From the IMG/VR virus record IMGVR_UViG_3300025191_000001, positions 1 through 64,000 of that record: a stretch of DNA of 64,000 nucleotides. One strand, 5' to 3'. Positions within the stretch are counted from its first letter, which is position 1. The number at the start of each line of letters is the position of its first letter. The notes beneath the pieces are model-generated. The model saw nothing but the letters and a program-made list of their open reading frames with translations, was not told the origin of the DNA and did not search any database. Shown piece after piece: positions 40,828 through 60,859 of the stretch. The translations under genes were made by a program, and so were the position numbers. This stretch comes from a virus (taxonomy: Duplodnaviria; Caudoviricetes).

Positions 40828-43809
40828 TTATTCTTCTCCTTCAAAAGGGTTAATGTCCTCCTCCACATTATCAGGTTCAAATGGAGGTTTATCTTCGTCT
40901 ATGTTAGCAGGTTTTTTAGGTTTAGTCAGTTTCTTTTTACTACTAGTTTCTTTTTTACTAGTAGGGTCTCCTTCAAAGTAATCTATCAGGTCATGTAGCT
41001 CTCTAGTTTTAAAGTCATAATAAAGGTCTGTAGCGTGTCCTGTGACACCCCCCCTGCATTTAGGCATATCAACTATAGTGGTATTACGCTCTACTGGGTC
41101 TTCTGCCATCTTATCCCTATTAAAGACAATATTTATATGAGCAGATTGTACAAAACTACTAGAACCTATCGCATCATACTCTGTAGCTTTTCTTTGCTTT
41201 CCTTGTCCGTCAGCAGGAGGTTTCCTTGTGTGAAGTACATTAACAATAATGATACCTCTTTTTACCATTAACTTCTGCCACATCATATGCTTCTCTTGGT
41301 CAGAGTTATCAAGGGAGCGTAGTAAATCGCTTAATACATCAATTACTATAACCTTACATCCATGCTGTTTAACCATTTGCTCTATCTGCTTCTCTACTAC
41401 AGTGATTTTACCCTCACGTTCATCTACAATGTTAAAACGAGGTACACCATACTCTGTACTAAATAAGTCTTCATACTTGTCCTTAATTTCAGGGCTATCG
41501 AGTAATTGAAGTACTTCCCCCCCTTCAGGTATAGCTTGTAAGTTAATACCTAAGTGCATAGATAACATATCAAGTGCATACTCTGCGGAAGTTGACTCTA
41601 AGGAAACTACCCCCGTCTTAGCAATATCAAGACAGTCCATGATCCAATGATATACCATAGAATTTACAAGAGTCGTATTATGAGTAACTGTGCCGTCACC
41701 TAAACAAAATCTTTTATTACCATCGATCTGAAAACCGTAATATTGCCCCTTTCCTAAGCTTTCTACCTCAATGGATGTTCTTATAGGGTCTCTTCCACTT
41801 GTCCTATCTTTAGCGATTTTTCGTCCTACCTTCAAATTAAGTTTAGACATATCTCCAGACAAAAACATTCGCAAGTACTCGCCTTTGAAGTCATTTTGAC
41901 AATTTTTTTCTACCACATTAGCCGTTACCCTAAAACCTAAACTCCTTGCTAACTTTAACGCATCCTCCGCCAGTTGGTTATTTTTTAGAGTTAGTTCATA
42001 GGAAACACCGTTGTGTAAATAGCCGTCTCCGTCTAATAAACCACTTAGCAACGCTACTCGGTCTTCGTAACAAGCTACCATATACTCTTGTGGTATATGT
42101 TTATTATTTATTAAGTTTTTATTCTTTAACCAAACTTTTAAACCCCCTTTTACGCTATAGGTAGTGCAGGTTTCTCTTAACGCTGAGGGGGATATAGTTA
42201 TTTCATAATTATTATAACTACACCAATCGTACAACCACTTTTTAAGTTCCCTATCTTTATTAGAAAAAGTGAACCTAGATGTAGCGGAATGTCCCTCTGC
42301 TAACCACAAACCCACCATATAAGGGTGTTCTACCTTATTTCCTTTACCTAATTCCGTCATATCTGCTATGTATCCTTTAAGGGAATCCTTTTTAGTTTTA
42401 CTTAGTTCTAAGTAATCCTTAATATTAATATCAACAGTTTGATTTTTGTTAAAACCAAACTTAGTGATAAAAGGTTTTAACGATAAAATATGACTCTCGT
42501 TGACAACATAGTCCATCCCTCTTTGTTGTTTTATTTTATATAAATTTTCAAAACCTTGGCATACAGATAATATATTACGAGGGCTTCCGTCGTCGCCCAT
42601 GACCTGATCACCTTTTTTAATATCTTGTACTTTTTTAATAGTATTGTCTGCCATTAGTACTGGAGTATCCTTGCCCAAGCACTTGCCAACAGAACTATCG
42701 GCTATAATATTAACAATCCTCCCAAAACCAATGCCACCTCTCATATTTTCTTGCAGACGATGCATGAAAGGAGGTAACGTCAGTTTAGGTGTATTAAGAA
42801 AATCAGGAAGTTCCTCTATAATTTCATTAGAACCTTTAATACCACTTGATACACAAGGTTTAGCATTGTAGAAATTACGTATAAATTGTTTATGTTTCCC
42901 TTTCTGTAGCATATCATTAGGGTCTTTACCCGACCACGTTACAATATGTACTTTCTCTGCTGGTAATACGTCTAAGCATCGTTCTATTGCCTCCTTGCCA
43001 GCTTTATCAGAGTCTAGGGCAAGGTATATGTTGTCATAGGTATCTAACCAATCGTATTGTGCTGATAGTTGTTTATAAGCACTTCCCTCCCCCGTGGTAG
43101 GAGAAACTATAGGGAATTGGTCGTACTCAGTTTGACCTCGTGACCTGTTGTATTCTGTAAACATCTCTAAAGCAGCATGGCAGTCCTCTTGCCCACCACA
43201 GACCATTACGTACTTTCCGTGACCTTTTTTCCATCGAACTTGTCCGTATAAGTCGCTAGACATACCTGTCTTACCTAGTCTAGGTTGTTTAAAATTCTTA
43301 GGGTGTTTTCTTATAGTGTAGCCCGTAATTTTACCGTTTTCCGTCTCTGGGTAATAACGTGCTTCGACCTCTCCATTACTGTCAAGTTTTGTAAGACACC
43401 CATAGAATTTTACAAACTCATCCTTAATTCCTCTGTACCCTTTACCTTTGTAGCCTATAGACCTAATTAAATTTTTAACTTCGTCTATAGATAAAGGTTC
43501 GGCTTTAGATGTCTTAGATAGTTTAATATTCTTAGACACTTTACCGTTATCATCTAGACTTAAGTCATTTGCTATAGAGCTTTTACTCAACATATCATTG
43601 TCATAAACTTGGTTGCAAGACCAACAATAAGCGTCATAGTATGTACCTTCGTCTGTATCGTGTTGGTACACAGACATAGCGTCAGAACTACCACAACATT
43701 TTAAGGATGGATAATCCTCAATAATCTCATCAGATATACAAGGGAAGTGTTGTGATATACGGTCTCCCGATGATTTACCCTCTTGTTTATTCTTTGTAAT
43801 CTTCTTCAC
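40828..43809 (-). CDS. Primase-helicase (T7 gp4-like) containing an intein
   Basis: N-terminal Zn finger, TOPRIM (GGQED, LDSD..G, KDPND), Walker A SSVGK|T, IVID, H.RK, IGSS. Confidence 0.92.
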   Translation of the reverse strand: MKKITKNKQEGKSSGDRISQHFPCISDEIIEDYPSLKCCGSSDAMSVYQHDTDEGTYYDAYCWSCNQVYDNDMLSKSSIANDLSLDDNGKVSKNIKLSKTSKAEPLSIDEVKNLIRSIGYKGKGYRGIKDEFVKFYGCLTKLDSNGEVEARYYPETENGKITGYTIRKHPKNFKQPRLGKTGMSSDLYGQVRWKKGHGKYVMVCGGQEDCHAALEMFTEYNRSRGQTEYDQFPIVSPTTGEGSAYKQLSAQYDWLDTYDNIYLALDSDKAGKEAIERCLDVLPAEKVHIVTWSGKDPNDMLQKGKHKQFIRNFYNAKPCVSSGIKGSNEIIEELPDFLNTPKLTLPPFMHRLQENMRGGIGFGRIVNIIADSSVGKCLGKDTPVLMADNTIKKVQDIKKGDQVMGDDGSPRNILSVCQGFENLYKIKQQRGMDYVVNESHILSLKPFITKFGFNKNQTVDINIKDYLELSKTKKDSLKGYIADMTELGKGNKVEHPYMVGLWLAEGHSATSRFTFSNKDRELKKWLYDWCSYNNYEITISPSALRETCTTYSVKGGLKVWLKNKNLINNKHIPQEYMVACYEDRVALLSGLLDGDGYLHNGVSYELTLKNNQLAEDALKLARSLGFRVTANVVEKNCQNDFKGEYLRMFLSGDMSKLNLKVGRKIAKDRTSGRDPIRTSIEVESLGKGQYYGFQIDGNKRFCLGDGTVTHNTTLVNSMVYHWIMDCLDIAKTGVVSLESTSAEYALDMLSMHLGINLQAIPEGGEVLQLLDSPEIKDKYEDLFSTEYGVPRFNIVDEREGKITVVEKQIEQMVKQHGCKVIVIDVLSDLLRSLDNSDQEKHMMWQKLMVKRGIIIVNVLHTRKPPADGQGKQRKATEYDAIGSSSFVQSAHINIVFNRDKMAEDPVERNTTIVDMPKCRGGVTGHATDLYYDFKTRELHDLIDYFEGDPTSKKETSSKKKLTKPKKPANIDEDKPPFEPDNVEEDINPFEGEE
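41677..42681 (-). mobile_element. Intein (335 aa) with LAGLIDADG homing endonuclease in the helicase P-loop
   Basis: N-terminus CLGKDTPVLMAD, block B VNESHIL, GLWLAEG and LSGLLDGDG motifs, C-terminus VTHN followed by +1 Thr. Confidence 0.93.
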
Positions 43810-47443: not shown

Positions 47444-47713
47444 CTACATAAGTACACTAACTTTAAGTAGAAAGACTGTAGTATACTCAAGATCCCCTAG
47501 AGGGTCAATATACTTCAAAGTAACTTCAATATTTCCATTGCTTTTTTCTTTATACTCATGTCTTGATAAGGTAAAAGCCCTACAACCAAATAAACCTAAC
47601 TCCTCTAGGAATTCTGGGTCGTCCTCATTAAATATAGCTACAAAGTCCTCTACGCTCTCCGTCACTCTACCAATACAACCATCATAATACTGACACGTAC
47701 TGACTAAATACAT
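47444..47713 (-). CDS. Hypothetical protein, first gene of the leftward operon
   Basis: RBS AGGAGA; upstream TTGACA-17-TATAGT promoter at ~47790-47818. Confidence 0.65.
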   Translation of the reverse strand: MYLVSTCQYYDGCIGRVTESVEDFVAIFNEDDPEFLEELGLFGCRAFTLSRHEYKEKSNGNIEVTLKYIDPLGDLEYTTVFLLKVSVLM

Positions 47714-48041
47714 AATTGTTTCTCCTAATTTTATTTATTACGGAAGTCCACACGTCTACATGGCTTCCCTTTTCGATAACTTGTGATATACTATATACAG
47801 ACATTAAGATGATGTCAACAAGGAAATTCAAATAAAATGAAAATAATTCAAGTTGTAGATAATACATCTTCTCAAGGAACAATCTTAAAACAATTCCTTG
47901 ACACAGAGTATGAATGTAGTTTAGAGTTATTCCACGTTATCTTGTTCCTGTCGAAGTTCTATGACTTTGTTATTGATGATGGGGCTGTGGTAGTGTGTGA
48001 TAAAGAATAGTTACTTTATAAGTAAAGTAGAAAAATAATGC

Positions 48042-48069
48042 TTGACTTATAAATAAGTTGTGGTATAAT
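48042..48069 (+). promoter_or_regulatory. sigma70 promoter with overlapping palindrome (possible autoregulatory operator)
   Basis: TTGACT-16-TATAAT with TG extension; ACTTAT-AA-ATAAGT across the -35 and spacer. Confidence 0.7.
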
Positions 48070-48090
48070 ATATACAGAGGATAAAATCTA

Positions 48091-48330
48091 ATGGATAATT
48101 ACTTAGAGAATTTAAAATTTTCACTAATTGATAAGGTAGTGGAGACTATGAAAGAACAAGGTATAACAGCTTATCGTATCGCTAAAGACAACGATATAAA
48201 CGAAGCTTATCTTAGTAGAGTTTTGAATAAGAAAACAATCACTACTATAGACCGTATATTAATCCTTGCGGATTGTATTGGGTTAAGAGTAGATGATATT
48301 ATTTTTAGATTAGAGGTTGACAACAAGTAA
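48091..48330 (+). CDS. XRE/Cro-type HTH transcriptional regulator
   Basis: MKEQGITAYRIAKDNDINEAYLSRVLN..TTIDRI..LA..IG. Confidence 0.85.
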   Translation: MDNYLENLKFSLIDKVVETMKEQGITAYRIAKDNDINEAYLSRVLNKKTITTIDRILILADCIGLRVDDIIFRLEVDNK

Positions 48331-48346
48331 TCTATATGTTTTAATG
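48318..48346 (+). promoter_or_regulatory. sigma70 promoter driving the non-coding structured region
   Basis: TTGACA-17-TTTAAT with TG upstream of -10; no ORF downstream for ~630 nt. Confidence 0.65.
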
Positions 48347-48352
48347 TAAGAA

Positions 48353-48775
48353 CAAGTAGTAAATTCATATATGTGGGTATACCTGTCCATATATGTCTTA
48401 TCGTGGTTAGACAACGTGAGCCACTAGCACTAGGGAAGGTAAGGTCACTACCATGTAGTCATCGTATTACATGGTACACTTTACGGGGTTAGGTGCGATA
48501 GTCTGTCAGTTTGTATTAGCTGATGAAGATTAACCCCTGTTCAACCGATGATACTTAGGTTGTTCGTAACAAGGCTCTTATACAAATAAGAGATGGAAAC
48601 TTCAAAAACTCTTGAACTCAAGAAGATAATCACTAAGGTGTTTCTTTTTAGATTCTGGTTTTAAAGATAAAACTTTCAACGCCCTGTCCCCGTAAAACAC
48701 TGGCAAGTGTTTCCTATTTAGTTAGGTTATGGGGTAGGGTAGTTGCGTCTTTAAAACTTTGAATCTAAGAAGATA
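48353..48775 (+). ncRNA. Candidate ~420-nt structured non-coding RNA
   Basis: Series of hairpins and a multibranch domain at 48643-48773 with several G-U pairs that work only on the + strand. Confidence 0.6.
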
Positions 48776-48870
48776 ATCTATAAAGATACAATCTTTTAAA
48801 GAGACAATCTTTAAAGAGTACCTTTAACAACTACGTTGTTAGAATACAATCTTTATAAGAGAACAATCTA
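48773..48870. repeat. Iteron-like AYAATCT repeats with TAACAAC-TAC-GTTGTTA palindrome (candidate origin)
   Basis: Heptamers at 48773, 48788, 48804, 48846, 48863; palindrome at 48825-48841; AT-rich tract follows. Confidence 0.7.
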
Positions 48871-48919
48871 CTAATTACTAGACTGTGAGAAATAAATAGT
48901 AATTAATAGTAAATACCTC

Positions 48920-48948
48920 TTGACTCTGTACTTTAATCTATCTATACT
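48920..48948 (+). promoter_or_regulatory. sigma70 promoter
   Basis: TTGACT-17-TATACT. Confidence 0.8.
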
Positions 48949-48980
48949 TACCTCACTTATTTAGGACGAGGTACAGAATT

Positions 48981-49130
48981 ATGAATGAACAAGTATTATT
49001 AGATGATGGTTGGTATTGGGTAATAAACAATGATCAAGGTTACTTGTGGTTAATTAAAGAGAGTGATATAGACTTTAGTAAGCACGTACATCAGTCGGAT
49101 TGCTTAGACTTTAGAAACAAAACTAGATAA
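48981..49130 (+). CDS. Small hypothetical protein (49 aa, below ORF-track cutoff)
   Basis: RBS GAGG, ATG..TAA, directly upstream of the methyltransferase. Confidence 0.55.
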   Translation: MNEQVLLDDGWYWVINNDQGYLWLIKESDIDFSKHVHQSDCLDFRNKTR

Positions 49131-49140
49131 GGAGTTTGTT

Positions 49141-49848
49141 ATGAAATATATGGGAAGTAAGAATCGAATAGCTAAAGAAATCCTACCTATTATATTGGAT
49201 AATAGAAAACCTGACCAGTGGTATGTTGAGCCGTTTGTTGGTGGAGCTAATATGATTGATAAGGTAGGCGGTAAGCGTATTGCGAATGACCTAAATCAGT
49301 ATGTAGTTACTATGTTATCTAGATTGGCAGAGGGGTGGATTCCAGAGTTAATAACTAAGACAGGTTATCAAGACATTAAAAATAACCATGACGTATACCC
49401 AAAAGAGGTAGTAGGATGGGTAGGGATTAATTGTTCTTACTCTGGTAAATGGTTTGGAGGGTATGCAGGTGAGGTTCAAACAAAACAAGGCAAGAGGGAT
49501 TACCAAAAAGAGGCATTAAATAATGTGCTTAAACAAGCAGAATCTCTCAAAGGAATAACTTTCCTATCTGATGACTATTATAACTTAATTTTACCAAAAG
49601 CTAGTCTTATTTACTGTGATCCCCCTTACGCTAATACAACAGGATATAAAGATAAATTTGACTATGAAAAGTTCTGGCAATGGTGCAGAGATAAACGCCA
49701 AGAAGGGCATGAAGTATTTATCAGTGAATACAATGCTCCAGATGATTTTACTTGTGTGTGGGAGAAACAAGTAAAGAGTTCTCTATCTGCTAATGGTAAA
49801 TCTGGTGGAAATAAGCAGTCTATAGAAAAACTTTTTACATTAGTGTAA
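49141..49848 (+). CDS. DNA adenine methyltransferase (D12/Dam-like)
   Basis: YMGSK, YVEPFVGG, ANDLN, YCDPPY, FISEY motifs. Confidence 0.92.
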   Translation: MKYMGSKNRIAKEILPIILDNRKPDQWYVEPFVGGANMIDKVGGKRIANDLNQYVVTMLSRLAEGWIPELITKTGYQDIKNNHDVYPKEVVGWVGINCSYSGKWFGGYAGEVQTKQGKRDYQKEALNNVLKQAESLKGITFLSDDYYNLILPKASLIYCDPPYANTTGYKDKFDYEKFWQWCRDKRQEGHEVFISEYNAPDDFTCVWEKQVKSSLSANGKSGGNKQSIEKLFTLV

Positions 49849-49915
49849 AATACTCCTTGACACACAATCACACTACACATAAACTAAGACAACATTAACA
49901 AAGAGGAGAAACATT

Positions 49916-50689
49916 ATGGAAAACGGTAAATATAGAGTGAAAGATGATTGTAAGACTTCTTCTGACGTAGAATTACAGATTGAAGTGGTAGACGGTGTTG
50001 CTACTTGTACAAAAGTAGAATATCTCTTGCATTGGGAGTTAGGCGAACAGATAGACACAGAATCCCTTAGTCCTGGACCTTGGGAACGTATCTCTAATGA
50101 GGAAATTCCCACATTTAAGAAAGGGGATAGGGTTAGGAAGAAAGATGGGACAAACTTTAGTAATAAGGAACTTGTAGCGACTGTAGATAGGGTTGAACCT
50201 ATAGTTTGGCTGAAAGAAACAGCTACAAAGATTGACCCCCAATCTTTAGAACTAGTGCAGATTTCCTCTGAAGAACCTATTGATGAGTATCCTTTCAAAG
50301 AGGGTGATAAGGTTAAGAAAAAAGATGGGTATGCTTTTAGTAATGGACAATACGTTGTTACTGTAGATAGTAGCACGTATCTTGATGGTATGGCAGCAGT
50401 ATGGATTAAAGAAACAAGTACTTATATTCACTCTGATCATTTAGAGTTATGTATCTCTACTCCTACCCCACACAAATATGCTGATGTAATAAAAGCTTGG
50501 GCAGATGGGTATGAGGTGCAGCATCATAATAGTATAAACGACGTGTGGTATAACAGTAATTTTCCCACCTTCGACCCAAACTTAAACTGGCGTATCAAAC
50601 CAGATAACCCTAACCAAGATAGAATCCTAGAGATAGAGAGTACTATTACTGAATTACAAAATGAATTAGAAGAGTTAAAGACCTCTTAG
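49916..50689 (+). CDS. Hypothetical protein with a tandem-duplicated SH3/KOW-like module
   Basis: FKKGDRVRKKDGTNFSN / FKEGDKVKKKDGYAFSN repeats; PHKYADVIKAWADG domain; own promoter TTGACA-17-TAAACT. Confidence 0.75.
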   Translation: MENGKYRVKDDCKTSSDVELQIEVVDGVATCTKVEYLLHWELGEQIDTESLSPGPWERISNEEIPTFKKGDRVRKKDGTNFSNKELVATVDRVEPIVWLKETATKIDPQSLELVQISSEEPIDEYPFKEGDKVKKKDGYAFSNGQYVVTVDSSTYLDGMAAVWIKETSTYIHSDHLELCISTPTPHKYADVIKAWADGYEVQHHNSINDVWYNSNFPTFDPNLNWRIKPDNPNQDRILEIESTITELQNELEELKTS

Positions 50690-50694
50690 AAGTT

Positions 50695-50730
50695 ACACCC
50701 TTGCCTGAGATAGTGGTAAGGGTGTTTTTT
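50695..50730 (+). terminator. Rho-independent terminator
   Basis: ACACCCTTGCC/GGTAAGGGTGT stem plus T-tract. Confidence 0.85.
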
Positions 50731-50812
50731 ATTATCTAATTTAAAATAGTTGTTGACATAGCTAGAGTAGTGGACTATTATTATTAAACCAATAAAAGAG
50801 AGGAATAAAATT

Positions 50813-51037
50813 ATGCAAAACATGTATAGAGTATCGGATAGGTTACGTAGAAGAGAAGACACCATAAACTCATCGACTATCGTATCTAATGAATTTGAAC
50901 AGTGTGGATGTTTATATTACTTCAGTAAGCTAGAAAATGCGTGTAAAGCTGCAATAGAGTTTGACAATATGGTAGTGCCTATAGTTTACTGTAAAGACAC
51001 TAGAAAGAGTGATGACTGGTATGAGGGGAAATTATGA
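50813..51037 (+). CDS. Hypothetical protein
   Basis: Promoter TTGACA-17-TATTAT, RBS GAGGA. Confidence 0.7.
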   Translation: MQNMYRVSDRLRRREDTINSSTIVSNEFEQCGCLYYFSKLENACKAAIEFDNMVVPIVYCKDTRKSDDWYEGKL

Positions 51038-51345
51038 AATGTGAAGAATTAGTAAGTGTATTGAAATCCGCAGGTGTGGAAGTTCTTAATGAAGATGAAT
51101 TTGGACGACTTGACGAAGACCTAAACCTCGTTAGGGATTTGAGATTCTGTGTAGATGACTCAGAGTATTCGATAGTTTGGTTTAATAACATGATGACCCT
51201 CCATACATGGAACTCTACACAACAAACTATGTTCACTAGAATAGAGCATTCTGGTACATGGCCTAATAATTTCAAGCGTAACCTTCAAATGTATTACAAA
51301 GATGATTGTATTTGTATGATAGGACTAGAGAGGTATTCAGAATGA
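51034..51345 (+). CDS. Hypothetical protein
   Basis: ATGA overlap, RBS. Confidence 0.7.
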   Translation: MKCEELVSVLKSAGVEVLNEDEFGRLDEDLNLVRDLRFCVDDSEYSIVWFNNMMTLHTWNSTQQTMFTRIEHSGTWPNNFKRNLQMYYKDDCICMIGLERYSE

Positions 51346-51650
51346 GTGAACAACTAGATTTATTTTCTTCTTATGAATGTGATCCTAGAGGTGCTACTGG
51401 TATGTATATCTGGTACAGTAATTGCCCTTGGGGAAAACCCGACCTGTACTGCGATATTGTAAGTATTAAAGGTCAATACATAGTATTCAGTGTCATTAAT
51501 GGAACATGGGAAGGTAGGTTGGACTTAGCAAATAAAACTATGAGAATTTTCCACCCTTGGTATGAGGATAGTGTACACCTTTATCATAAATACGAATTTA
51601 TTTACTATAAACCTAAAAAAGTTCTTGACACAGATAACATTCCTTCCTAG
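51342..51650 (+). CDS. Hypothetical protein
   Basis: Start MSEQLDLF with ATGA overlap. Confidence 0.65.
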   Translation: MSEQLDLFSSYECDPRGATGMYIWYSNCPWGKPDLYCDIVSIKGQYIVFSVINGTWEGRLDLANKTMRIFHPWYEDSVHLYHKYEFIYYKPKKVLDTDNIPS

Positions 51651-51741
51651 AATACACATATTCAATAATCAATCACATTGAACAATGTTACAATTATTAA
51701 TCACGAATATATTTATGAATAATCACACAGGAGAGACAATT

Positions 51742-52350
51742 ATGAAAATTAACAGACTAGATTATGTACGTACAGAGGCTTTTAGTTTATGGGAGTTGAC
51801 TTTGTTAGAAGAACTAATACGTAGTCAAGGTTATAAATTAACAGATGAAGTGAATAGTTATTATGTTGGGAACTGGCTTGAATATGGAGTAGATGAGTCG
51901 GGTCATGCTGTTTTTTGGAATACTCAATTCTTAGAAAAGTGGGAGGGTAATGACATCACAGAGCAATTCCGTGATTATTTAGATAAGAGAGGAGCAGACG
52001 TTGAAAAGGAAGAATCTTCTAATAGTAAGTCCTTTACAAAGGATGATTTAAAAGATGGAATGGTTGTTAATTTTAGAAGAGGTGACAGTGGATTGATATT
52101 TAATAAGATGGTTTACTCCACAAGTAAGGAAGACTTTGCAAATCTTTCTACAAAAAGATGTATCATCGGCTTAGAACGTCTAAAAGAAGACCTCTCTCAC
52201 AAAGATTTACCTTATTATGAAATCATCAAAGTATCATACATGGACGAAGTTCTGTGGGAACGTATAGAAGAAACCCCTGAACAAAAGCGTATCAAAGAAC
52301 TAGAGAAGATTATCTCTGAAGCTCAGAAAGCATTGGAGGGTCTACAATGA
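51742..52350 (+). CDS. Hypothetical protein
   Basis: Promoter TTGACA-17-TAGAAT; RBS AGGAG before MKINRL; FTKDDLKDGMVV module. Confidence 0.7.
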   Translation: MKINRLDYVRTEAFSLWELTLLEELIRSQGYKLTDEVNSYYVGNWLEYGVDESGHAVFWNTQFLEKWEGNDITEQFRDYLDKRGADVEKEESSNSKSFTKDDLKDGMVVNFRRGDSGLIFNKMVYSTSKEDFANLSTKRCIIGLERLKEDLSHKDLPYYEIIKVSYMDEVLWERIEETPEQKRIKELEKIISEAQKALEGLQ

Positions 52351-52553
52351 GAGAGGTGAAACTCCCTTTTGAAGCCTGTGACGCTATTGTTATTGCCTGT
52401 TTAAAGGATGACTATGAGGATGTTAAAGCCTCTAAGGAGTATTACTCTATAGGATTAGCCAATGCTATACGATGCCTACTTAGGTACTACATGGTGGACA
52501 GTGAATACGAAGCTTGGACTACTAGTGTAGGTATAGAGGTAGATGAGGGCTAA
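52347..52553 (+). CDS. Hypothetical protein
   Basis: ATGA overlap. Confidence 0.6.
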   Translation: MREVKLPFEACDAIVIACLKDDYEDVKASKEYYSIGLANAIRCLLRYYMVDSEYEAWTTSVGIEVDEG

Positions 52554-52691
52554 CTTCTGGAGAGGGTATAGAAAGGGGTGGTACACAGGGTTCATTCTTG
52601 TGCTTATATCCTCTCTAATCCTCTACACAATTGTTATCATCTATTTGACAAACTCACGAGGATTGTTATTCTAAAATTAGAATTCCTATTA

Positions 52692-52787
52692 GAGCCTCTC
52701 AGACACGTTCTGAGGGGTTTTCTTGTATATAGTGGTATGATTGTATACCTTAGAATTAAGTCCTCTTAGAATGGCTTACAGGAGCTT
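52692..52787. repeat. ~96-bp pseudo-palindromic element, copy 6
   Basis: Reverse complement aligns ungapped with copies 1 and 5. Confidence 0.88.
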
Positions 52788-52879
52788 TAAATTAATTATA
52801 AAATAATTGAAAATAATGTTTGACAGGGGGTTATTCTTTTGCAATACTTACCTTATCTAAACAGAGGAGAGAGTGGATA

Positions 52880-53071
52880 ATGAATATTGCAGAAACAATT
52901 GTACACAAAGCTAACGGAGACACAAGCTCTGTCATGGAATTGTCTAATAAACATGCTGTTGATAGAGAACAAAACTTTGAGAAAGAGAAAACTTATTATT
53001 TCTTTGTTGACAACAGTGGTATTGTTGTCCATAATGACCTTGTTGAAACATTTCCAGGAGAGTACTTATGA
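52880..53071 (+). CDS. Hypothetical protein
   Basis: Promoter TTGACA-17-AATACT at 52820; start MNIAET. Confidence 0.65.
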   Translation: MNIAETIVHKANGDTSSVMELSNKHAVDREQNFEKEKTYYFFVDNSGIVVHNDLVETFPGEYL

Positions 53072-53346
53072 TTGATATTACACGTATGTCAAATACAGAA
53101 TTTAAACAGTTCACTAAAGGAAAGTTTTTCTCCTGCAAGTTTATTAAGAAATCAGGTGAACTTCGTGAATACAAAGGGGCTAGAGTAGAAGTTACTAAAG
53201 ACAGTAAATTTACGATGCATAATAATATAGAGCATAAGCAGAATTTAGTTAGTGTGTATGTTCCTAATGAGAAACGTCCTAGGGCTACTCTTAATTTAGA
53301 AACTGTTAAAGAACTGACTTTCCAAGGGAAAACTTATAAATATTAA
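53068..53346 (+). CDS. Small SH3-like beta-barrel protein
   Basis: FFSCKFIKKSGELR motif. Confidence 0.65.
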   Translation: MIDITRMSNTEFKQFTKGKFFSCKFIKKSGELREYKGARVEVTKDSKFTMHNNIEHKQNLVSVYVPNEKRPRATLNLETVKELTFQGKTYKY

Positions 53347-53413
53347 GTGTTTACACAGGGAGGTGTGTTAAGGTAGTATTTGTTTTAGAATGTTAATGAG
53401 GAGAAGAGGAAGA

Positions 53414-54034
53414 ATGAGTGATTTAGATAGGTTATTTGAAAATGCGCCAGAGGGTGCGGTTGACTTGCGTGAACATAAACAAGCAGGGCATCTAAGATGG
53501 TTTGATAAAGAAGGTAAGGCTTGGTGTGGAGAAAATTGGTTTGTTTCTGAGTTTAAGAAATGGAAAACTATAGCTACACTACCACAGCCAGAACGCAAAA
53601 CGGTTGAGGATGCGGTTGAGTACATCGAAGGCTACTGCGATGATGTATGGACATGTAGTCTTGACGCTTTATGTTACGTGGATGACGTTTGGTTTTATGA
53701 CAAAGCTGGCATAAACAAGAATCAAGTATGCACCCGTGAAGAGTTCGAAGCTTGTGTTGCTGCTAAGGCTAAGAGAGAGCCTGAGTGGACTCATAGAACC
53801 AAACATAGCAAATTGTGCAAAATTGTTTTAGAGGAGCCTGACACTGACGGTTACATTGTTGTTTTAACAGAGGAGGGTGAATACATTAAACATCATACAG
53901 CACTCAAACCCATCAAGCCTACAATCACGAAGGCTGAGCATGAGTTTTTATGTAGGTTCTCTGCTGATGTAAGTGACATTCGTATAGTTAACGCTGTAGA
54001 GTCGTATCTAGCTGAGCATAAGGTAGTAGAGTAA
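53414..54034 (+). CDS. Hypothetical mosaic protein
   Basis: RBS AGAGGA before MSDLDR; APEGA module. Confidence 0.7.
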   Translation: MSDLDRLFENAPEGAVDLREHKQAGHLRWFDKEGKAWCGENWFVSEFKKWKTIATLPQPERKTVEDAVEYIEGYCDDVWTCSLDALCYVDDVWFYDKAGINKNQVCTREEFEACVAAKAKREPEWTHRTKHSKLCKIVLEEPDTDGYIVVLTEEGEYIKHHTALKPIKPTITKAEHEFLCRFSADVSDIRIVNAVESYLAEHKVVE

Positions 54035-54172
54035 TCACCTCCACAGACACATTGACACAGTTTTCTATATTGTGTATACTGACAATCTCTGGCTTAGGGC
54101 TTATTCTTATAGGATTAGAACTGGCTAGGATTGTCATTCTAATTATATCTACATTATTAAAGAGAAAACATT

Positions 54173-54379
54173 ATGAGGATAAGTAAGTCACAACATAGAG
54201 GATTATATTATTTCTTTGGGAGTGAAACCTCTTGTACATTTGATAGGTTTAAGGTTAACACATACTCAGGGCAACTGTCTGTGGATTTGTATAGAGACAA
54301 TGTTTATCTGATGTCTGTCAACTTTGAACATTCAAAAGAGTTTTGTAAGCAATGGAGACTGATGAGTATAAAGGACTGA
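54173..54379 (+). CDS. Hypothetical protein
   Basis: RBS; upstream TTGACA-17-TATACT at 54052. Confidence 0.6.
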   Translation: MRISKSQHRGLYYFFGSETSCTFDRFKVNTYSGQLSVDLYRDNVYLMSVNFEHSKEFCKQWRLMSIKD

Positions 54380-54406
54380 ATCTTTTAGGAACAACCTCTA
54401 TATTAA

Positions 54407-54502
54407 CACTCTCTGAGAGCCATTTTAAGAGGTTGTAATTTTAACTAAGGTGATTGTATAGGGTAGAGTAATATCTCTTTATACAGAGCCATACAGGAAC
54501 GA
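54407..54502. repeat. ~96-bp pseudo-palindromic element, copy 7
   Basis: CTGAGAGCCATTTTAAGAGG left; GGTGATTGTATAGGG core; AGCCATACAGGA right at the same offset. Confidence 0.8.
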
Positions 54503-54514
54503 TTAGGAGAGGTA

Positions 54515-54955
54515 ATGAACTTCCCAAAGAGAGAATACGTAAGTGAACCAGAAATAACGAAAGTTTACACTATAAATGTACACATTGAACCTGAGATTAT
54601 GTGGCATAAAGAGTTCACCTATATGGATAACGAGGCACTGGCAACCTTTGATGGTGACAAAATCTACAGGAATTTAGAAAATAAAGTGGAAGTTGCTAGA
54701 GCTAAACAATTCGCAGAAGTTGTGGATGGAACATTAGACAGCGTTTACATAAGCAAACAACTTATTATAGTAGAGCCAAAACTAGAAAGGATTCTTTCTG
54801 AGGATTATCGTAATAAGATAAAAGAACTAGAGGAAAAGCTCACTATAAAAGAGAACCTTTTAAAGGATAGAGTAACTACTATAGATTTATACAATAATCT
54901 ACCGTGGTGGAAGAAACTTTTCACTTTTACTATTTACAATGATGAGAATATATAA
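54515..54955 (+). CDS. Hypothetical protein
   Basis: RBS AGGAGAGG; coiled coil then PWWKKLF C-terminal motif. Confidence 0.7.
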   Translation: MNFPKREYVSEPEITKVYTINVHIEPEIMWHKEFTYMDNEALATFDGDKIYRNLENKVEVARAKQFAEVVDGTLDSVYISKQLIIVEPKLERILSEDYRNKIKELEEKLTIKENLLKDRVTTIDLYNNLPWWKKLFTFTIYNDENI

Positions 54956-55206
54956 AACGATTAATACTAACATTAGGACTAGCGCTATTTCTCACTGGAT
55001 GTGTAGAGGAAAAAGTAGTTTATTTGAATGAGAAAGGGGAACGGATGGAGGCTAGAGCTATATCCGATTGGAGTAATGAAGTAGGTGAAGTTTGTATTAA
55101 GAGGGTTGTCTATTATACGTATTTCTACGGAAACCGAGCAGGTATATCTCCTAAGATTGTTCCTAGGGGCAACCAATTCAATAAACCCTTTATAGAAAAA
55201 TGCTAG
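54952..55206 (+). CDS. Putative lipoprotein with non-canonical ATA start (84 aa)
   Basis: Frame extends upstream of the track ORF into (I)KRLILTLGLALFLTG-C signal peptide and lipobox. Confidence 0.55.
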   Translation: MKRLILTLGLALFLTGCVEEKVVYLNEKGERMEARAISDWSNEVGEVCIKRVVYYTYFYGNRAGISPKIVPRGNQFNKPFIEKC

Positions 55207-55241
55207 ATACAATTCCAGTTGAAAATTTGACCCGTTTAATA

Positions 55242-55279
55242 GTCCCATTAGCTTAATTGCTAGTGGGATTTTTCTTTTT
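55242..55279 (+). terminator. Rho-independent terminator
   Basis: GTCCCATTAGC/GCTAGTGGGAT stem plus T-tract. Confidence 0.8.
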
Positions 55280-55524
55280 AGGGATCGACACTAAAGTCAC
55301 TCTAGCCTAGAGTAAAAGATGGCTAGGATTTTGACACAAAGGGGATTTTCTCTGGACTAGAGACGAGGCTGATTATGCTAGACGCTTTTTTCGCTAGAAA
55401 GCTAATTAATTTTCATAAGTATAAAAATATATTATGCGATTCTTTTATAAGGTATACCATACATTTATGGGATTTATATGAAGTATTTATTAGATAAATG
55501 ACATGTTGGCATGAAAATTAATAA

Positions 55525-55541
55525 AGCAAATAGTATGCCAA
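55525..55541 (-). promoter_or_regulatory. sigma54-type -24/-12 site
   Basis: TTGGCATACTATTTGCT (GG-N10-GC). Confidence 0.6.
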
Positions 55542-55644
55542 TTTATTTTCTATTGGGCAGGGATGGTTCAAGCAAAAGCTTTACATATAAATGTGGGTTA
55601 TCTACCTTGCCCCGTTTTTCTCAATTTGTGAAGCTAGTATAAAT

Positions 55645-55673
55645 AAAGCGCTCACATATTGCAAGCGCTTTTT
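55645..55673. terminator. Hairpin terminator downstream of the 55686-55940 gene
   Basis: AAAGCGCT/AGCGCTTT stem with A/T flanks. Confidence 0.6.
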
Positions 55674-55685
55674 GAAATTATCTTA

Positions 55686-55940
55686 TTATTTAATTAGTTT
55701 CCCTTTTACCTTGCTATAACCTTGCGCACCAACACTATTGTAATATGTAAATTTTACAGTCTTTTGTAGTATATCTTTACCAGAAAATTTTAGGGCGTAT
55801 TTTTCAGGAGATACAGGGTTACTTGTAAAATCTAGCAATTGAATATTACAACGTGCCCCCTCGTCTATCATAAAATTAGTGTTTTCAATTAAAAATTTCA
55901 ATGCATCTTTTTTTGTCATATCTTTAAAATTGTTATTCAT
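55686..55940 (-). CDS. Hypothetical early protein
   Basis: RBS AAGGTGG; divergent from the rest of the island. Confidence 0.65.
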   Translation of the reverse strand: MNNNFKDMTKKDALKFLIENTNFMIDEGARCNIQLLDFTSNPVSPEKYALKFSGKDILQKTVKFTYYNSVGAQGYSKVKGKLIK

Positions 55941-56120
55941 TTGTCCACCTTTTCATTAATTGGCATTATCGCCTTGAACGGTTGAAAGCTTACACTATTA
56001 GATAAGAATGTAAAGAACAAAAAGCAATAAACATAGAAGTTTTTAGAATAGTGAAAGTTTCACATTTATATTTATTTGTGTTTTAATAAAAATAATTATT
56101 TAGAGTTAAAAGGTGGAATA

Positions 56121-56354
56121 ATGTCTTTAGTGGAAAAGCAAATTTTTATTGCCTCTCATAGAGGTAAAGTGCAAATAGTTGACGTGTTTTTAAATAATAC
56201 ATTATACGATGAAACCTCACAAAAAACAGCTTGTGAGGTACATTACACACTCGTAGATGAGGTTGGTGTATTAGAGAAAAGTTTTGATAAAATAGAATTT
56301 TCTACTTATGTAGGATATTGGGATATAAATTTCATAAAAAAGTGTTTGACATAG
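56121..56354 (+). CDS. Hypothetical early protein
   Basis: RBS AGGTGG before MSLVEK. Confidence 0.6.
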   Translation: MSLVEKQIFIASHRGKVQIVDVFLNNTLYDETSQKTACEVHYTLVDEVGVLEKSFDKIEFSTYVGYWDINFIKKCLT

Positions 56355-56417
56355 TGAAAAATCTTATGTAGATTGTAATCCATGTAATGATGCATTAATA
56401 AATGAAGGTTTAAGGTT

Positions 56418-56777
56418 ATGAGCAATCGTATAGTGATTTATGCCCCGTCCAATTTAGGTTATAAAAAAATTACATCCCGTACAATAGAAGAGGGGACTGT
56501 CTTACCCAAAAATTACTTCTACACCGAGGAGGAAGCGGTTAACGAGTATGACAGACGTAAAAAAGAATGTGAGGAAGAAAGAAAACACTTTGAAAATTCT
56601 TTTTTATTCGAGGCAAAAGAAGCAGAAGAAAAAATAAACCAAGTTTTAAAAAATACAGGTTTTGATTTAGACTTTTGTTATGATGGGGATAGCCAAGGCA
56701 TACACTCAGAAAAACTATATATCAGTAAGACTATAGCGGGTAAGTATCATCATTATTTTGAATATGAATTAAAATAA
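56418..56777 (+). CDS. Hypothetical early protein
   Basis: Own promoter and RBS. Confidence 0.7.
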   Translation: MSNRIVIYAPSNLGYKKITSRTIEEGTVLPKNYFYTEEEAVNEYDRRKKECEEERKHFENSFLFEAKEAEEKINQVLKNTGFDLDFCYDGDSQGIHSEKLYISKTIAGKYHHYFEYELK

Positions 56778-56839
56778 AGTTTGACAAATAAAAACATGTA
56801 GTTTAGTGTTAGCACTCATTCAATAAATAAGGTTTACAA

Positions 56840-56932
56840 ATGGAACTCGAAAAACTTTTAAACATACTACTTTACATTGGTTTTGTGTGTGGTATGGTAA
56901 CGACTCTTCACTTAGTTTTAGTTAATTTATAA
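56840..56932 (+). CDS. 30-aa hydrophobic peptide
   Basis: MELEKLLNILLYIGFVCGMVTTLHLVLVNL; TAAGG RBS directly after a promoter. Confidence 0.5.
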   Translation: MELEKLLNILLYIGFVCGMVTTLHLVLVNL

Positions 56933-56945
56933 AAGGTAACAAATT

Positions 56946-57248
56946 ATGGTACAAGGTTTAATTCTATTCTCTGATAGTTCACGCGGTATAACTATTCCAC
57001 AATTTTTCGCTAAATCAGTACAGCGTAATTATGTTTATGGCATTAATGAAGAGGATCTGGATTGGTTTTTATCTAATGACGTTGATCATATAGAATACTG
57101 GGATCGGTGGGATGAAATATTAAACAATTGTTACATACAAGACCATGATAATAATACATGGTATTTATCCCAAGACGGCGACCTATGGTTATTTAATGAA
57201 GAAGCAATGACTGAAGAAGAAAAAGAAAACTTTTTTGGTCAATTTTAA
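56946..57248 (+). CDS. Acidic early protein
   Basis: SDSSRGITIPQ.F, YWDRWDEIL, YLSQDGDLW motif recurrent in phage early regions. Confidence 0.75.
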   Translation: MVQGLILFSDSSRGITIPQFFAKSVQRNYVYGINEEDLDWFLSNDVDHIEYWDRWDEILNNCYIQDHDNNTWYLSQDGDLWLFNEEAMTEEEKENFFGQF

Positions 57249-57339
57249 TAAAAACCTATTGACAGGGTGAAAACTTTAGTGATAACATTTGCACTGTCAT
57301 CTAGACAAACAAATTAATTTTTTAAAAGGTAAATAAATT

Positions 57340-57744
57340 ATGCAAAACTTAACTTTTAGTGATTACTATACAGAATGCGAAAACACGGCTTCATTGATTG
57401 TTGAGCAAGCGATTGACGATCTTCAGCGTGAAAATGAGGAAGTAACAGAAGACGCGGTTGAGGAAAAAATACACGATTATATTCTACATGAGACGATAGA
57501 TTCTCATGAATATGTCACCTATAATTATTATCATTTGCCGATCTTACAAATTAGTTCTAATGATGATTATATGATAGAAAATATGGGGTCAGATTGTTTA
57601 ATGCATGAATTGAAAAATAATGGTCTAAGTGGTTTACATATGGCTTTAACTTTCTGGACTTTTTATGCGGATGTTAGCGAGTATCTAGCGGATGAAATAA
57701 ACAAACAACTGGAAAAGTTAAAAGAAGGAAACGAAAATGTATAA
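57340..57744 (+). CDS. Ocr-like acidic anti-restriction (DNA-mimic) protein
   Basis: Highly acidic helical 134 aa; IHDYILHETIDSHEYVTYNYY resembles T7 Ocr LHDAIHMAADNAVPHYY; own early promoter. Confidence 0.55.
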   Translation: MQNLTFSDYYTECENTASLIVEQAIDDLQRENEEVTEDAVEEKIHDYILHETIDSHEYVTYNYYHLPILQISSNDDYMIENMGSDCLMHELKNNGLSGLHMALTFWTFYADVSEYLADEINKQLEKLKEGNENV

Positions 57745-57856
57745 CTCGAGAATCTTTGATCGCAAAAGTGACTTTTTAAGCAAGTCAGAAAGAAAACATA
57801 TTAAGCAGGAACGCAACAAAAGAAGAAGTAAGTTTAACAGGTACGATCTAGCATAA
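57737..57856 (+). CDS. 39-aa basic peptide
   Basis: MYNSRIFDRKSDFLSKSERKHIKQERNKRRSKFNRYDLA; RBS AAGGA, overlaps the upstream stop. Confidence 0.5.
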   Translation: MYNSRIFDRKSDFLSKSERKHIKQERNKRRSKFNRYDLA

Positions 57857-58034
57857 GGCTTTTAACACTAGGTTATTGACTTCTTTCAGCTTAATATCCT
57901 AGAATTAAGAGCCTTAGAAAGTCTCTTATTTTTGAAATGAAGTTTTAACTATAGGCACTTGTTGCAGCTAGTGCCTATTATTAAAATTTTATAAATCGGC
58001 AATAATACCACAATTTGAAAACTATGGTGAAAAT

Positions 58035-58256
58035 ATGGTTACAATTCTATTTACTAATTGTGCAATAACAGTAAAGTCAGATATTAACGGCTGGACTTAT
58101 TCCAGTTTAATTAACACACTTGATAAATTAATCGGCTTAACGGATCTTACTGATCCCGTAGTAATGGTAAAGTGTGGTAACATTAAAACATTAACACGTA
58201 AGTTAATGGAACAAGGTTTAATAGTTAACGAACGCCCTAGAAAATGCATTTATTAA
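58035..58256 (+). CDS. Hypothetical early protein
   Basis: Duplicated leader ending GGTGAAAATATG. Confidence 0.65.
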   Translation: MVTILFTNCAITVKSDINGWTYSSLINTLDKLIGLTDLTDPVVMVKCGNIKTLTRKLMEQGLIVNERPRKCIY

Positions 58257-58373
58257 CGGGATTGTCAAAAGATTAAAATTCACAAACTGATTTAGATTAC
58301 ATTTAAGAAGTGTAGCCTATTATTAAAATTTTATTAATTGGCAATAATGCCACAATTAAACTATGGTGAAAAT

Positions 58374-58595
58374 ATGTTTTTTATTGTTACACGTGAAAAT
58401 GAGGACGGCTCTTTTGATAACGCAGGGATGATCAATCGCTTTTCTACTAGTTACTACGGAACTGTAAAAGGTCTAGTTAAACATATTATAAGTGATAACT
58501 GGAAAAAATCAGGCTTCAGACTTGAAGTGTTCCGTAATCAATACGATACTAGGCTAGTAGATACATTGTACTTTAAAGCGGGGGAGGTATTATAA
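58374..58595 (+). CDS. Hypothetical early protein
   Basis: Same duplicated leader fixes the start at 58374. Confidence 0.65.
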   Translation: MFFIVTRENEDGSFDNAGMINRFSTSYYGTVKGLVKHIISDNWKKSGFRLEVFRNQYDTRLVDTLYFKAGEVL

Positions 58596-58597
58596 CA

Positions 58598-58912
58598 ATG
58601 ACTTCACTATCAGAACAAATCAGAGCTATAAAAACAGCTAATCAATTGAACAAATTTATCGACACGTTAAATCTAACAAAAGTCGAATGCTTAAAATATA
58701 ATTCCCTATATTGGCTATATGTAGGGGATGACTTTGCCCAGCTTAGCGTTAACCATGGTCACGCATCAAAATTCGAGTACACCAGGCGTTACATTGATTC
58801 AGACGGTAAAATGGTAGTAATAGGCACTAGTGAGGCTTTATTTAATAAGCAAGGATTAAATAAGATTTTAGACTCACTCAATAAACGTATAGATGGATTT
58901 TACAATGCTTAA
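58598..58912 (+). CDS. Hypothetical early protein
   Basis: RBS GGAGG. Confidence 0.7.
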   Translation: MTSLSEQIRAIKTANQLNKFIDTLNLTKVECLKYNSLYWLYVGDDFAQLSVNHGHASKFEYTRRYIDSDGKMVVIGTSEALFNKQGLNKILDSLNKRIDGFYNA

Positions 58913-59189
58913 ACTAATCAAAAAAATCAAAGTTCAAAACGAAATAGACACTATCAAAAAAGAGACTAGAAAAGATTGCAACAATCTACTGTTAAAAATG
59001 GCGTTGGTAGATACATTACATTACATGTATAGTGAGAAGGTTGGGGATAGCATGATTAAGAATAACTTTAAACAATTGTGTGCTTTTCTGGAGGTTGGCG
59101 TATATAAATTCATTCATCTAACTATAGAGGTATACTTGCATAATGACGGTACAAAAAGTGCAAGGATTATTAGTGAGGAAAAACTTTAA
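58905..59189 (+). CDS. Hypothetical early protein
   Basis: Overlapping packing. Confidence 0.6.
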   Translation: MLKLIKKIKVQNEIDTIKKETRKDCNNLLLKMALVDTLHYMYSEKVGDSMIKNNFKQLCAFLEVGVYKFIHLTIEVYLHNDGTKSARIISEEKL

Positions 59190-59269
59190 AATTATTTTAT
59201 TTTAGTTGTTGACAGTTAAAACGAGTGTCTGTATTGTGGGCACTCATTCAATAAATAAGGTTTTAAATT

Positions 59270-59464
59270 ATGAGTAATTCAATTGACGTATACGGTTCTT
59301 TCTCTGAATGTTGCGACATCTCAGTCGCCGGTACGTATAAAAACGGTTGGGAATTTGAGGACATTGTAGACAATAGCTTCTTATCTAGAAAAGAAGCATT
59401 GAAGTCTATAAAAGACTGGGCAAAACGTGAACAAGTAGGACTTGACGAAATTTGTTTCTTTTAA
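59270..59464 (+). CDS. Hypothetical early protein
   Basis: Own promoter and RBS. Confidence 0.65.
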   Translation: MSNSIDVYGSFSECCDISVAGTYKNGWEFEDIVDNSFLSRKEALKSIKDWAKREQVGLDEICFF

Positions 59465-59540
59465 TAATTGTCTTTTCTAATAGAGTCCTGTATTATCGGG
59501 ACTCTATCAAAAAGCTAATTATTTCTAACAAGGTGATATC

Positions 59541-59945: not shown

Positions 59946-60035
59946 CAATAAATTTAAAATAAAGTTTGACATAGTGGACGCTAATCAATAGTATTCGCTA
60001 TGCACTCTTTATTAATTCTAATTTATAGGTGATTT

Positions 60036-60656: not shown

Positions 60657-60686
60657 CCATTTAGAAGCCTTGTAACACTCTAAAAT

Positions 60687-60712
60687 AAAGCACCTAATAG
60701 AGGTGCTTTTTT
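60687..60712 (+). terminator. Rho-independent terminator ending the early island
   Basis: AAAGCACCT/AGGTGCTTT plus T-tract. Confidence 0.85.
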
Positions 60713-60763
60713 ATTGCTTGCAATAAATGAGGACATCTTACAAGGATTAAGACAACCGTTATA

Positions 60764-60859
60764 GCGGCATACAAGCACCGCTACGGCCTTTAAAACTTAC
60801 ACCTAACACAATGGCATACCTTAACGTTTTAAACGTTATCACGGGCTTTACAGGAACTG
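60764..60859. repeat. ~96-bp pseudo-palindromic element, copy 8 (divergent)
   Basis: ACAATGGCATACC core; TCACGGGCTTTACAGGA right arm. Confidence 0.55.

Follow-up and report, generated by a model that had tools for sequence, protein, structure and literature searches.

A probable new family of folded plus-strand noncoding RNAs in Myoalterovirus-like phages, with its own host-type promoter and a DNA repeat array fused to its last helix

The put RNAs of bacteriophage HK022 are about 70 nt long and consist of two stem-loops. Previous studies of this phage revealed that these cis-encoded RNAs are located directly downstream of the early promoters and head two transcription units (PMC9378689). Much larger RNAs are also known from phages: the lytic phage ICP1 makes an abundant noncoding transcript of ~800 nt (PMC7567579), and expression of the known large phage RNAs (GOLLD/ROOL and that of ICP1) goes up during lytic growth (PMC12286853, PMC7567579). 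The RNA described here was found in a 64,000-nt window, bases 1 to 64000 of the 94,038-bp IMG/VR phage record IMGVR_UViG_3300025191_000001 (here called G000), whose only named relative is the Alteromonas myophage vB_AmeM_PT11-V22 (V22) of the genus Myoalterovirus; the paper on the V22 genome found no noncoding RNAs (PMC7289586). A stretch of this window that is free of open reading frames (ORFs), directly behind a promoter at 48317-48345 (+), very probably represents a new family of folded plus-strand RNA of ~430 nt with its own host-type promoter. This copy is referred to as copy A, and a paralogue at 76.4-76.9 kb of the same genome is referred to as copy B. The first-pass annotation of the window, made from its letters alone, had suggested a new class of phage noncoding RNA at this locus, and three observations support that suggestion, namely, the lack of a matching Rfam family, covariation among homologues, and the sigma70-type promoter.

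All of the stems listed in the first-pass annotation were recovered at their positions, either in the minimum free energy (MFE) fold or by direct reading of the sequence. On the plus strand of copy A, the MFE fold contained P1 (48367-77/48386-96), P3 (48449-59/48466-76), P4 (48485-91/48531-37), the outer (48643-74/48741-73) and inner (48681-94/48728-40) helices of a 3' rod, and two hairpins at the tip of the rod (48695-701/48706-12 and 48713-16/48723-26); P2 (48403-08/48419-24) and P4a (48505-11/48518-24), which lies inside P4, were identified by sequence reading. The plus strand of 48318-48775 also folded better than shuffled controls, with an energy of -143.1 kcal/mol compared to -105.5 ± 6.2 kcal/mol for 100 dinucleotide shuffles (z = -6.1). 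The reverse strand of the same stretch reached -104.7 kcal/mol (z = -2.8), the z scores of 48346-48780 were -7.0 on the plus strand and -3.5 on the minus strand, and copy B gave z scores of -4.7 to -6.2. For all six of the A, B, and C copies tested (the copy types are described below), the MFE of the plus strand was below that of the minus strand, by 6 to 37 kcal/mol, and G-U pairs were frequent. Both observations agree with the earlier proposal of an RNA from the plus strand.

The description of this stretch as ORF-free also held, inasmuch as each plus-strand frame contained 7 to 17 stop codons and no ORF was common to the copy types; a protein-coding reading was dropped because no ORF was shared between them. 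When the whole window was searched against Rfam 15 at the gathering threshold, only a group I intron in the late gene block was matched (5319-6023; RF00028; 60.7 bits; E = 6.5e-13). A permissive search of 47700-49200 (E up to 10) likewise returned no family; the sole match, Plasmodium RUF2 (E = 1.4; 22.9 bits versus a gathering score of 90), was at chance level. ARAGORN reported zero tRNA or tmRNA genes in the 64-kb window.

Copy B was located by a DNA search of the G000 genome against itself and is 68% identical to copy A over the 3' domain and ~56% identical over the full length. Further copies were sought by scanning sequence collections for two invariant 12-mers that flank the 3' domain. 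Eight distinct copies were obtained in all, copies A and B plus six others from four related Myoalterovirus-like records, among them that of the cultured V22. V22 carries a B-type copy (92 to 94% identical to B), an 87-kb record (G002) carries both an A-type copy (78 to 79%) and a B-type copy (83%), and a complete 93.6-kb record (G001) carries one C-type copy (~60%) at locus B. A Tara contig of the same phage as G001 (L062) has an identical C-type copy, and two short contigs also carry copies. Stretches of 17 to 23 nt were invariant even between copies that were only 56 to 61% identical overall. In addition, the DNA contig of a relative (run X2, from a 2025 marine metagenome) differed from copy A at only 8 of 467 nt of the RNA (98% identity), compared to ~90% identity in the flanks. 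In this same relative, the region of the gene upstream of the RNA (48087-48317) was replaced by 216 unrelated bases.

A metagenome scan for the pattern formed by two repeats of the RNA, R1 and R2 (see below), gave 39 loci, two of which (L062 and L065) were real, the others being tandem coding repeats or chance matches. A scan of 185,579 bacterial and archaeal species, with one genome per species, was made with the exact two-motif pattern only and gave 14 loci, none of them real. Covariance models detected no third copy in G000, G001, G002, or the parts of V22 that were searched. As known from these sequences, the range of the family is narrow and comprises about five related marine phage records. 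A separate scan for the loop motif pair TCATCGTATTA, gap, TGCGATAG matched three viral contigs, all of which were chance matches in coding regions.

To assess covariation, three covariance models (5' part, middle, and 3' rod) were built from hand-checked structures and the eight distinct copies were realigned. The collected homologues upheld the structure: 38 of the 100 modeled pairs had changed on both sides with pairing kept, 84 to 93% of cells were paired overall compared to 33 to 56% in slid controls, and the observed covariation score was reached by none of 500 shuffles. The rod (50 pairs) was 83.5% paired (35 to 51% when slid), with 15 pairs changed on both sides and 0 of 500 shuffles scoring as high. 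The corresponding values were 92.9% (33 to 56% when slid), 16 pairs, and 0 of 500 shuffles for the 25 pairs of P4 to P6 and 91.7% (33 to 49%), 7 pairs, and 3 of 500 shuffles for the 25 pairs of P1 to P3. The alignments were fitted to the model, which favors the structure; the slid controls and the variety of pair types in the aligned sequences argue against an alignment artifact. The counts err on the low side, since misalignment persists in parts of P1, P2, P5, the tip, and the 5' strand of the C-type rod. Together, the compensatory changes, the G-U pairs, and the strand asymmetry indicate that the selected product is a folded transcript of the plus strand.

The promoter of copy A consists of a -35 hexamer, TTGACA (48317-22), a 17-nt spacer that ends in TGn, and a -10 hexamer, TTTAAT (48340-45); it is of the extended -10 kind and overlaps the final codons and the stop codon of a gene for a helix-turn-helix (HTH) protein. 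A sigma70 promoter within the end of this gene had been predicted before, and its -35/17-nt/-10 layout was kept in all nine cassettes compared. In each of the nine, the promoter directly precedes the start of homology, despite unrelated upstream contexts. A consensus promoter scan missed 48340-45 because this -10 hexamer is without the usual A at position 2. Minus-strand promoter matches inside the RNA of copies A and B were only 9-of-12 matches, which is chance level. A second promoter-like site (48920-48948, +; TTGACT, 17 nt, TATACT) lies ahead of the first downstream gene (48981), and a comparable second promoter is present at locus B of G000, G001, and G002. No second promoter was recognizable between the RNA and the next gene at locus B of V22, at locus A of G002, or at the loci of the alternative (D-type) RNA described below. 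Around copies A and B, the scan for intrinsic terminators returned no terminator-like site. A boxA-like sequence with which the V22 copy starts was considered and rejected, as it was not conserved across copies.

The ORF-free transcript region is 390 to 435 nt long and is made up of two parts, a 5' domain with six or seven hairpins and a 3' rod tipped by two hairpins. Folds and covariation together define the 5' domain (48346-48600, +), which contains P1, P2, a tentative P2b, P3, P4 with P4a, P5, and P6; P3 is missing from the C-type copies. The hairpins are joined by the conserved motifs UAGCA, GGUCACU, UGCGAUAG, and UGGAAAC, and sequence conservation is concentrated in loops and junctions, not in stems. 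A conserved single-stranded stretch leads from the 5' domain to the repeat R1 (48614-48631, +), 18 nt in length, 17 of which are invariant in all eight copies. The 3' domain (48643-48778, +) is a rod of ~55 bp, the 5' strand of which (48643-74) is designated X. Its tip, with hairpins at 48695-712 and 48713-26, is a conserved three-way arrangement, and the 3' side of its closing helix is the repeat R2 (48761-78), of which R1 is a near-copy. R1 and R2 are spaced 134 to 147 nt apart and are almost invariant across copies, and where the A-type copy of G002 departs from the others, both have changed alike. Since R1 and R2 compete for the partner strand X, one of them is always unpaired. The duplex energies were -11.5 to -15.8 kcal/mol for X:R2 and -5 to -8.4 kcal/mol for R1:X, and it could be that R1:X is a transient hairpin formed during transcription and that R1 is finally exposed, as such energies would predict. 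A local R1 hairpin seen in copy A was discarded, as it was not kept in the B-type copy of G002 or in the C-type copies. Two further interactions are candidates. For a pseudoknot between the P3 loop and UGCGAU, the B-type copy of G002 has an additional G-C pair, V22 has a G-to-A change that disrupts the pairing, and the C-type copies, being without P3, offer no partner. In a possible long-range pairing of GGAAAC with GUUUCC, the core was invariant in the copies.

Downstream, the RNA runs into an AT-rich array of short palindromic direct repeats (48762-48880) of the form AATCT, 3 to 5 nt, AAGA-T/G. The units start at 48762, 48775, 48790, 48806, and 48848, with a weaker unit at 48865; they are spaced 13 to 16 bp apart, TRF reported periods of 13 and 15, and the GC content is 24 to 28%. 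It had been stated that the RNA ends exactly where the repeats begin. The two are indeed adjacent, but the exact boundary did not stand, as the 3' strand of the closing helix of the rod (48761-78) also serves as the first repeat unit. The same overlap is present in every copy, each ending in a long rod with a 3' strand that doubles as the first unit of an array, and R1, X, and R2 are direct or inverted copies of the downstream repeat word. Clusters of at least three repeat units occurred in G000 only at loci A and B, with five to six units at A and three clear units at B. A palindrome (48826-40) with a 6-bp stem and a 3-nt loop interrupts the array, the stem being 6 to 7 bp across loci. Its stem sequence varies between genomes with pairing kept and is identical at A and B within one genome. 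The repeat unit and the 6-bp/3-nt-loop palindrome recur in inverted orientation at 60889-60925 and 61090-61128, without the RNA domain upstream. In these recurrences both palindrome arms have changed from AACAAC to AATAAC, again with pairing kept, and they lie in a largely noncoding stretch of 1.4 kb (60660-62130) that is AT-rich and almost ORF-free.

The HTH gene that ends in the promoter of copy A (48091-48330, +) encodes a Cro/CI-type protein of 79 amino acids with weak matches to Pfam HTH_3/HTH_26 and PHROG repressor families. It had been proposed that this protein regulates the RNA; this link failed, in that the gene is not coinherited with the RNA. It is missing beside the B and C copies, none is detectable in G001, G002 has an unrelated one, and a protein search found a match in V22 only, where the same HTH gene is present but is followed by a different RNA. 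This D-type RNA is an ORF-free element of ~400 nt at locus A of V22 (L001:3314-3740, +) and of G001 (L073:8010-8410, -), the only two records in which it was found. The D-type element follows the same promoter and first bases (GTAAGAA) as the A-type RNA, and the two D-type sequences are 88% identical in genomes that are otherwise ~70 to 76% identical. Compensatory changes were found in its first long helix, along with a 9-bp long-range complement (CAUCAUACG/CGUAUGAUG) and fold z scores of -2.3 to -3.9. A covariance-model search revealed no likeness between the D-type and the RNA family models, and the D-type loci have essentially no repeat array. Locus A thus serves as a slot for alternative structured RNAs. 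The genes downstream of the RNA also differ, both between loci A and B and between genomes.

The position of the two copies can be seen from the gene blocks of G000, drawn from crude gene maps and Pfam/PHROG scans. A rightward late block starts at 77 kb, continues across the start of the record, ends at 21 kb, and contains HNH and unknown genes, an intron-bearing tape-measure gene, and lysis genes; the equivalent block of V22 continues to the TerL, portal, and capsid genes (V22 record; PMC7289586). It is followed by a leftward replication and nucleotide block (21-47 kb; primase-helicase with an intein, PolA, exonuclease, RNR, and ThyX), a rightward small-gene block dense in near-consensus sigma70 promoters (48-62.7 kb), and a leftward fourth block (62.8-76.2 kb; Pif1, RlaP, PhoH, and ClpP). 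Copy A is located at the first point of divergence, with replication genes leftward and early genes rightward, and copy B is located at the second, with the PhoH/ClpP genes leftward and HNH and unknown genes rightward. The 993-amino-acid primase-helicase (40828-43809, -) has a Toprim domain and a DnaB-like C-terminal domain and is split by an intein that contains Hint and LAGLIDADG homing-endonuclease domains. The block running leftward from copy B contains, close to the genes for Pif1 helicase, PhoH, and ClpP, a gene for an RlaP-type nucleotidyltransferase (an RNA-repair-pathway protein of the DNA polymerase beta family; L067:4242-5264, corresponding to genome positions 66242-67264, -). Within the small-gene block, 49800-62100 (+) contains ~15 sigma70 promoters close to the consensus, most of which have TTGACA and a 17-nt spacer, ahead of small genes of unknown function. 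Strong plus-strand hairpins resembling intrinsic terminators are found at 52691, 55241, and 60687, interspersed with near-consensus promoters, and few strong terminators follow copy B. This region resembles a host-RNA-polymerase early region built from many short units. G000 also has an identical repeat of exactly 127 bp at its two ends (1-127 and 93912-94038), which is probably an assembly (k-mer) overlap and is therefore uninformative on the physical genome ends.

We tentatively favor the reading in which the RNA acts in cis, as an early leader or gate of the gene blocks that run rightward. Host RNA polymerase would make an early transcript that heads each rightward block, copy A heading the early small-gene region and copy B heading the genes that lead to the terminase and structural genes. 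Because there is no intrinsic terminator and the next gene is without its own promoter in some genomes, read-through of the RNA is likely; the polymerase would most likely continue through it, which would make the RNA a cis-acting leader. Rho might be kept off the long untranslated transcript by its dense structure, RNase III could plausibly process the rod, and a phage DNA-binding protein could plausibly bind the repeat array that begins in the 3' strand of the rod and thereby control read-through or timing. The nearest analogies would be the put leaders of HK022, the nut leaders of lambda, and the T7 early leader, which RNase III processes. Several points weigh against this reading. The ~15 near-consensus promoters of the plus-strand block after copy A, together with its own terminators, mean that a single upstream leader is not needed there, and at locus B of G000, G001, and G002 the second promoter after the cassette is strong. 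An RNA of 430 nt with multiple domains far exceeds in size every antitermination leader known to us. The cassette is swapped as a unit, independent of the downstream genes, and this fits a self-contained RNA gene equally well. Finally, in two metatranscriptome runs from different studies (X6 and X9), assembled contigs fell inside the RNA (48444-48640 and 48383-48573, respectively) and nothing covered the HTH gene or 48816-49718, but depth over the RNA was like that of other phage parts, so that these contigs may stem from DNA carry-over and do not establish expression, transcript ends, or strand.

The exchange of the cassette also bears on a possible explanation that we rank only slightly below the leader, in which the transcript is a stand-alone early RNA that acts in trans. 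Such an RNA could belong to a ribonucleoprotein, could serve as a scaffold or self-assemble as an "ornate" RNA, or could act as a decoy that draws off a host RNA-binding or defense protein. Binding would take place at the exposed R1/R2 motif, which is invariant and rich in purines, and either processing or the covarying hairpin that follows the repeats would generate the 3' end. Every copy has its own conserved promoter, the size and multidomain architecture are like those of stand-alone RNAs, and large noncoding RNAs have precedents in lytic phages (ICP1 [PMC7567579] and GOLLD/ROOL [PMC12286853]). The 17- to 23-nt invariant stretches, the permanent availability of either R1 or R2, the modular exchange by which the D-type can occupy the same promoter, and the much better conservation of the RNA than of its flanks in the X2 relative all point in the same direction. 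However, neither a terminator nor any other feature defines a 3' end, the two copies share no neighboring gene for a partner protein, and the 185,579-species scan (exact two-motif pattern only) gave no host homologue to mimic. The antitoxin mimic proposed in the first-pass annotation is unlikely, as there are no tandem repeats of 30 to 40 nt inside the RNA and no toxin-like neighbor; the tandem arrays have periods of 10 to 15 and are located at or after the RNA 3' end, which is not the arrangement of a ToxI-like type III antitoxin, where tandem repeats of ~34 to 36 nt accompany an endoribonuclease toxin gene. A CsrB-like sponge was also rejected, with only 2 to 5 GGA motifs present. That all of this is a DNA-level element, i.e., protein-binding palindromes or cruciforms of a regulatory region or mobile element with RNA structure as a by-product, is very improbable. 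R1, the 5' strand of the rod, and R2 are indeed copies of the downstream repeat word, and the palindrome after the repeats is found again at other places in the genome, in either orientation. Yet the compensatory changes extend over about ten separate helices in sequences that are otherwise unrelated between copies, the many G-U pairs and the consistently lower plus-strand energy are unexpected for symmetric cruciforms or protein palindromes, and it is the loops and junctions rather than the stems that are conserved.

The repeat array raises a different explanation, which we consider unlikely, that the locus is a transcription-activated or RNA-primed origin. Transcription from the promoter would pass through the RNA and enter an array of iterons and an AT-rich region where the DNA unwinds, and the transcript would open the DNA or prime the leading strand at two origins per genome, by analogy to ColE1 RNA II, the T4 oriF/oriG R-loops, the T7 primary origin, and ori-lambda. 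Consistent with an origin, direct repeats with internal dyad symmetry, 13 to 16 bp apart and clustered only at A and B, are followed by DNA of 24 to 28% GC, and the repeat and palindrome words recur without the RNA in the AT-rich noncoding 1.4 kb (60889-60925 and 61090-61128). Both cassettes are exactly at the points where gene orientation diverges, an arrangement that is just as typical of ordinary regulatory regions. Immediately next to copy A is the replication module (primase-helicase, PolA, exonuclease, and RNR), and the T7-like replisome of the phage could extend an RNA primer. On the other hand, selection covers more than 400 nt of RNA structure, including loop sequences, and the known phage R-loop origins are not known to need a long folded RNA. 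The D-type loci share the promoter and a long RNA but are essentially without the repeat array, a conserved antisense regulator was not seen, and no initiator protein was identified, the nearby HTH gene not being conserved with the cassette. The earlier idea of a replication preprimer had relied on a G-rich tract for a persistent hybrid; this argument failed, because the tract is the 3' strand of a covarying helix and is U-rich in the B copies, with compensating changes in its partner. The preprimer idea is thus weakened by the loss of both the G tract and the HTH link, and it is kept alive by the AT-rich repeat array after every copy. Its specific ColE1-like form, in which folding of the preprimer would decide whether a hybrid forms in the iteron/AT-rich DNA and primes the T7-like replisome, with a repeat-binding protein as the gate and two RNA-dependent origins, is in our judgment distinctly unlikely.

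To our knowledge, large well-folded RNAs of bacteria and phages with clear covariation are rare, and each new class is instructive. Two features set this family apart, namely, the fusion of a DNA repeat array into the last helix and the presence of an alternative RNA in the same promoter slot of sister phages. The generality of the finding is limited by the narrow known range. The family is tractable because it is present in a cultured phage-host pair, V22 on Alteromonas mediterranea, and natural comparisons are provided by paralogues that are 56 to 68% identical in one genome and by the unrelated D-type behind the same promoter. If the RNA gates read-through, as in the leader reading that we favor, it would extend the kinship of the put-type leaders to a far larger RNA of different architecture; if it primes replication, lytic phages would use an RNA II mechanism of the plasmid type; and if it works in trans, it would be a new early host-takeover or scaffold RNA.

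Compared to known systems, the arrangement resembles HK022 putL/putR and their protein-dependent counterpart, lambda nutL/nutR, in that two paralogous, covarying, noncoding RNA elements come right after host-type early promoters and head two transcription units. It differs from the compact two-stem design of put in having 390 to 435 nt, about ten helices, 100 modeled pairs, and a 55-bp rod. Both copies here point the same way and are fused to a DNA repeat array, and read-through of terminators is only proposed. The RNA is like the GOLLD/ROOL and ICP1 RNAs in being a large, phage-borne, multidomain noncoding RNA of unknown function. It matches no Rfam model, however, and is smaller than GOLLD/ROOL, which are typically 500 to 800 nt or more; the tRNA neighborhood frequent for GOLLD, ROOL, and OLE has no counterpart in the 64-kb window, which lacks tRNA genes; and, unlike GOLLD/ROOL and the ICP1 RNA, it occurs as two diverged paralogues with their own sigma70 promoters, each with a repeat array. 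A transcript of several hundred nucleotides fired toward repeat-bearing, AT-rich DNA is also a feature of ColE1 RNA II, T4 oriF/oriG, and the T7 primary origin, and the likeness to ColE1 extends to the importance of folded RNA domains there and to the PolA encoded by the phage here. In contrast to RNA II, there is no conserved G run for a hybrid and no equivalent of the antisense RNA I was seen. The T4 and T7 origins are, as far as we know, without a long structured RNA, and, compared to origin transcripts in general, there are two copies here, one by the replication genes and one heading the packaging and structural block. With iteron-type origins (ori-lambda and plasmid iterons), the locus shares at least four direct repeats of regular spacing (13 to 16 here) beside AT-rich DNA. 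Lastly, the rod is like the RNase III sites of the T7 early leader and intergenic regions in being a long, near-perfect hairpin with small internal loops in an untranslated early transcript, but here the hairpin is only the 3' third of a larger conserved RNA, and its cleavage is a prediction.

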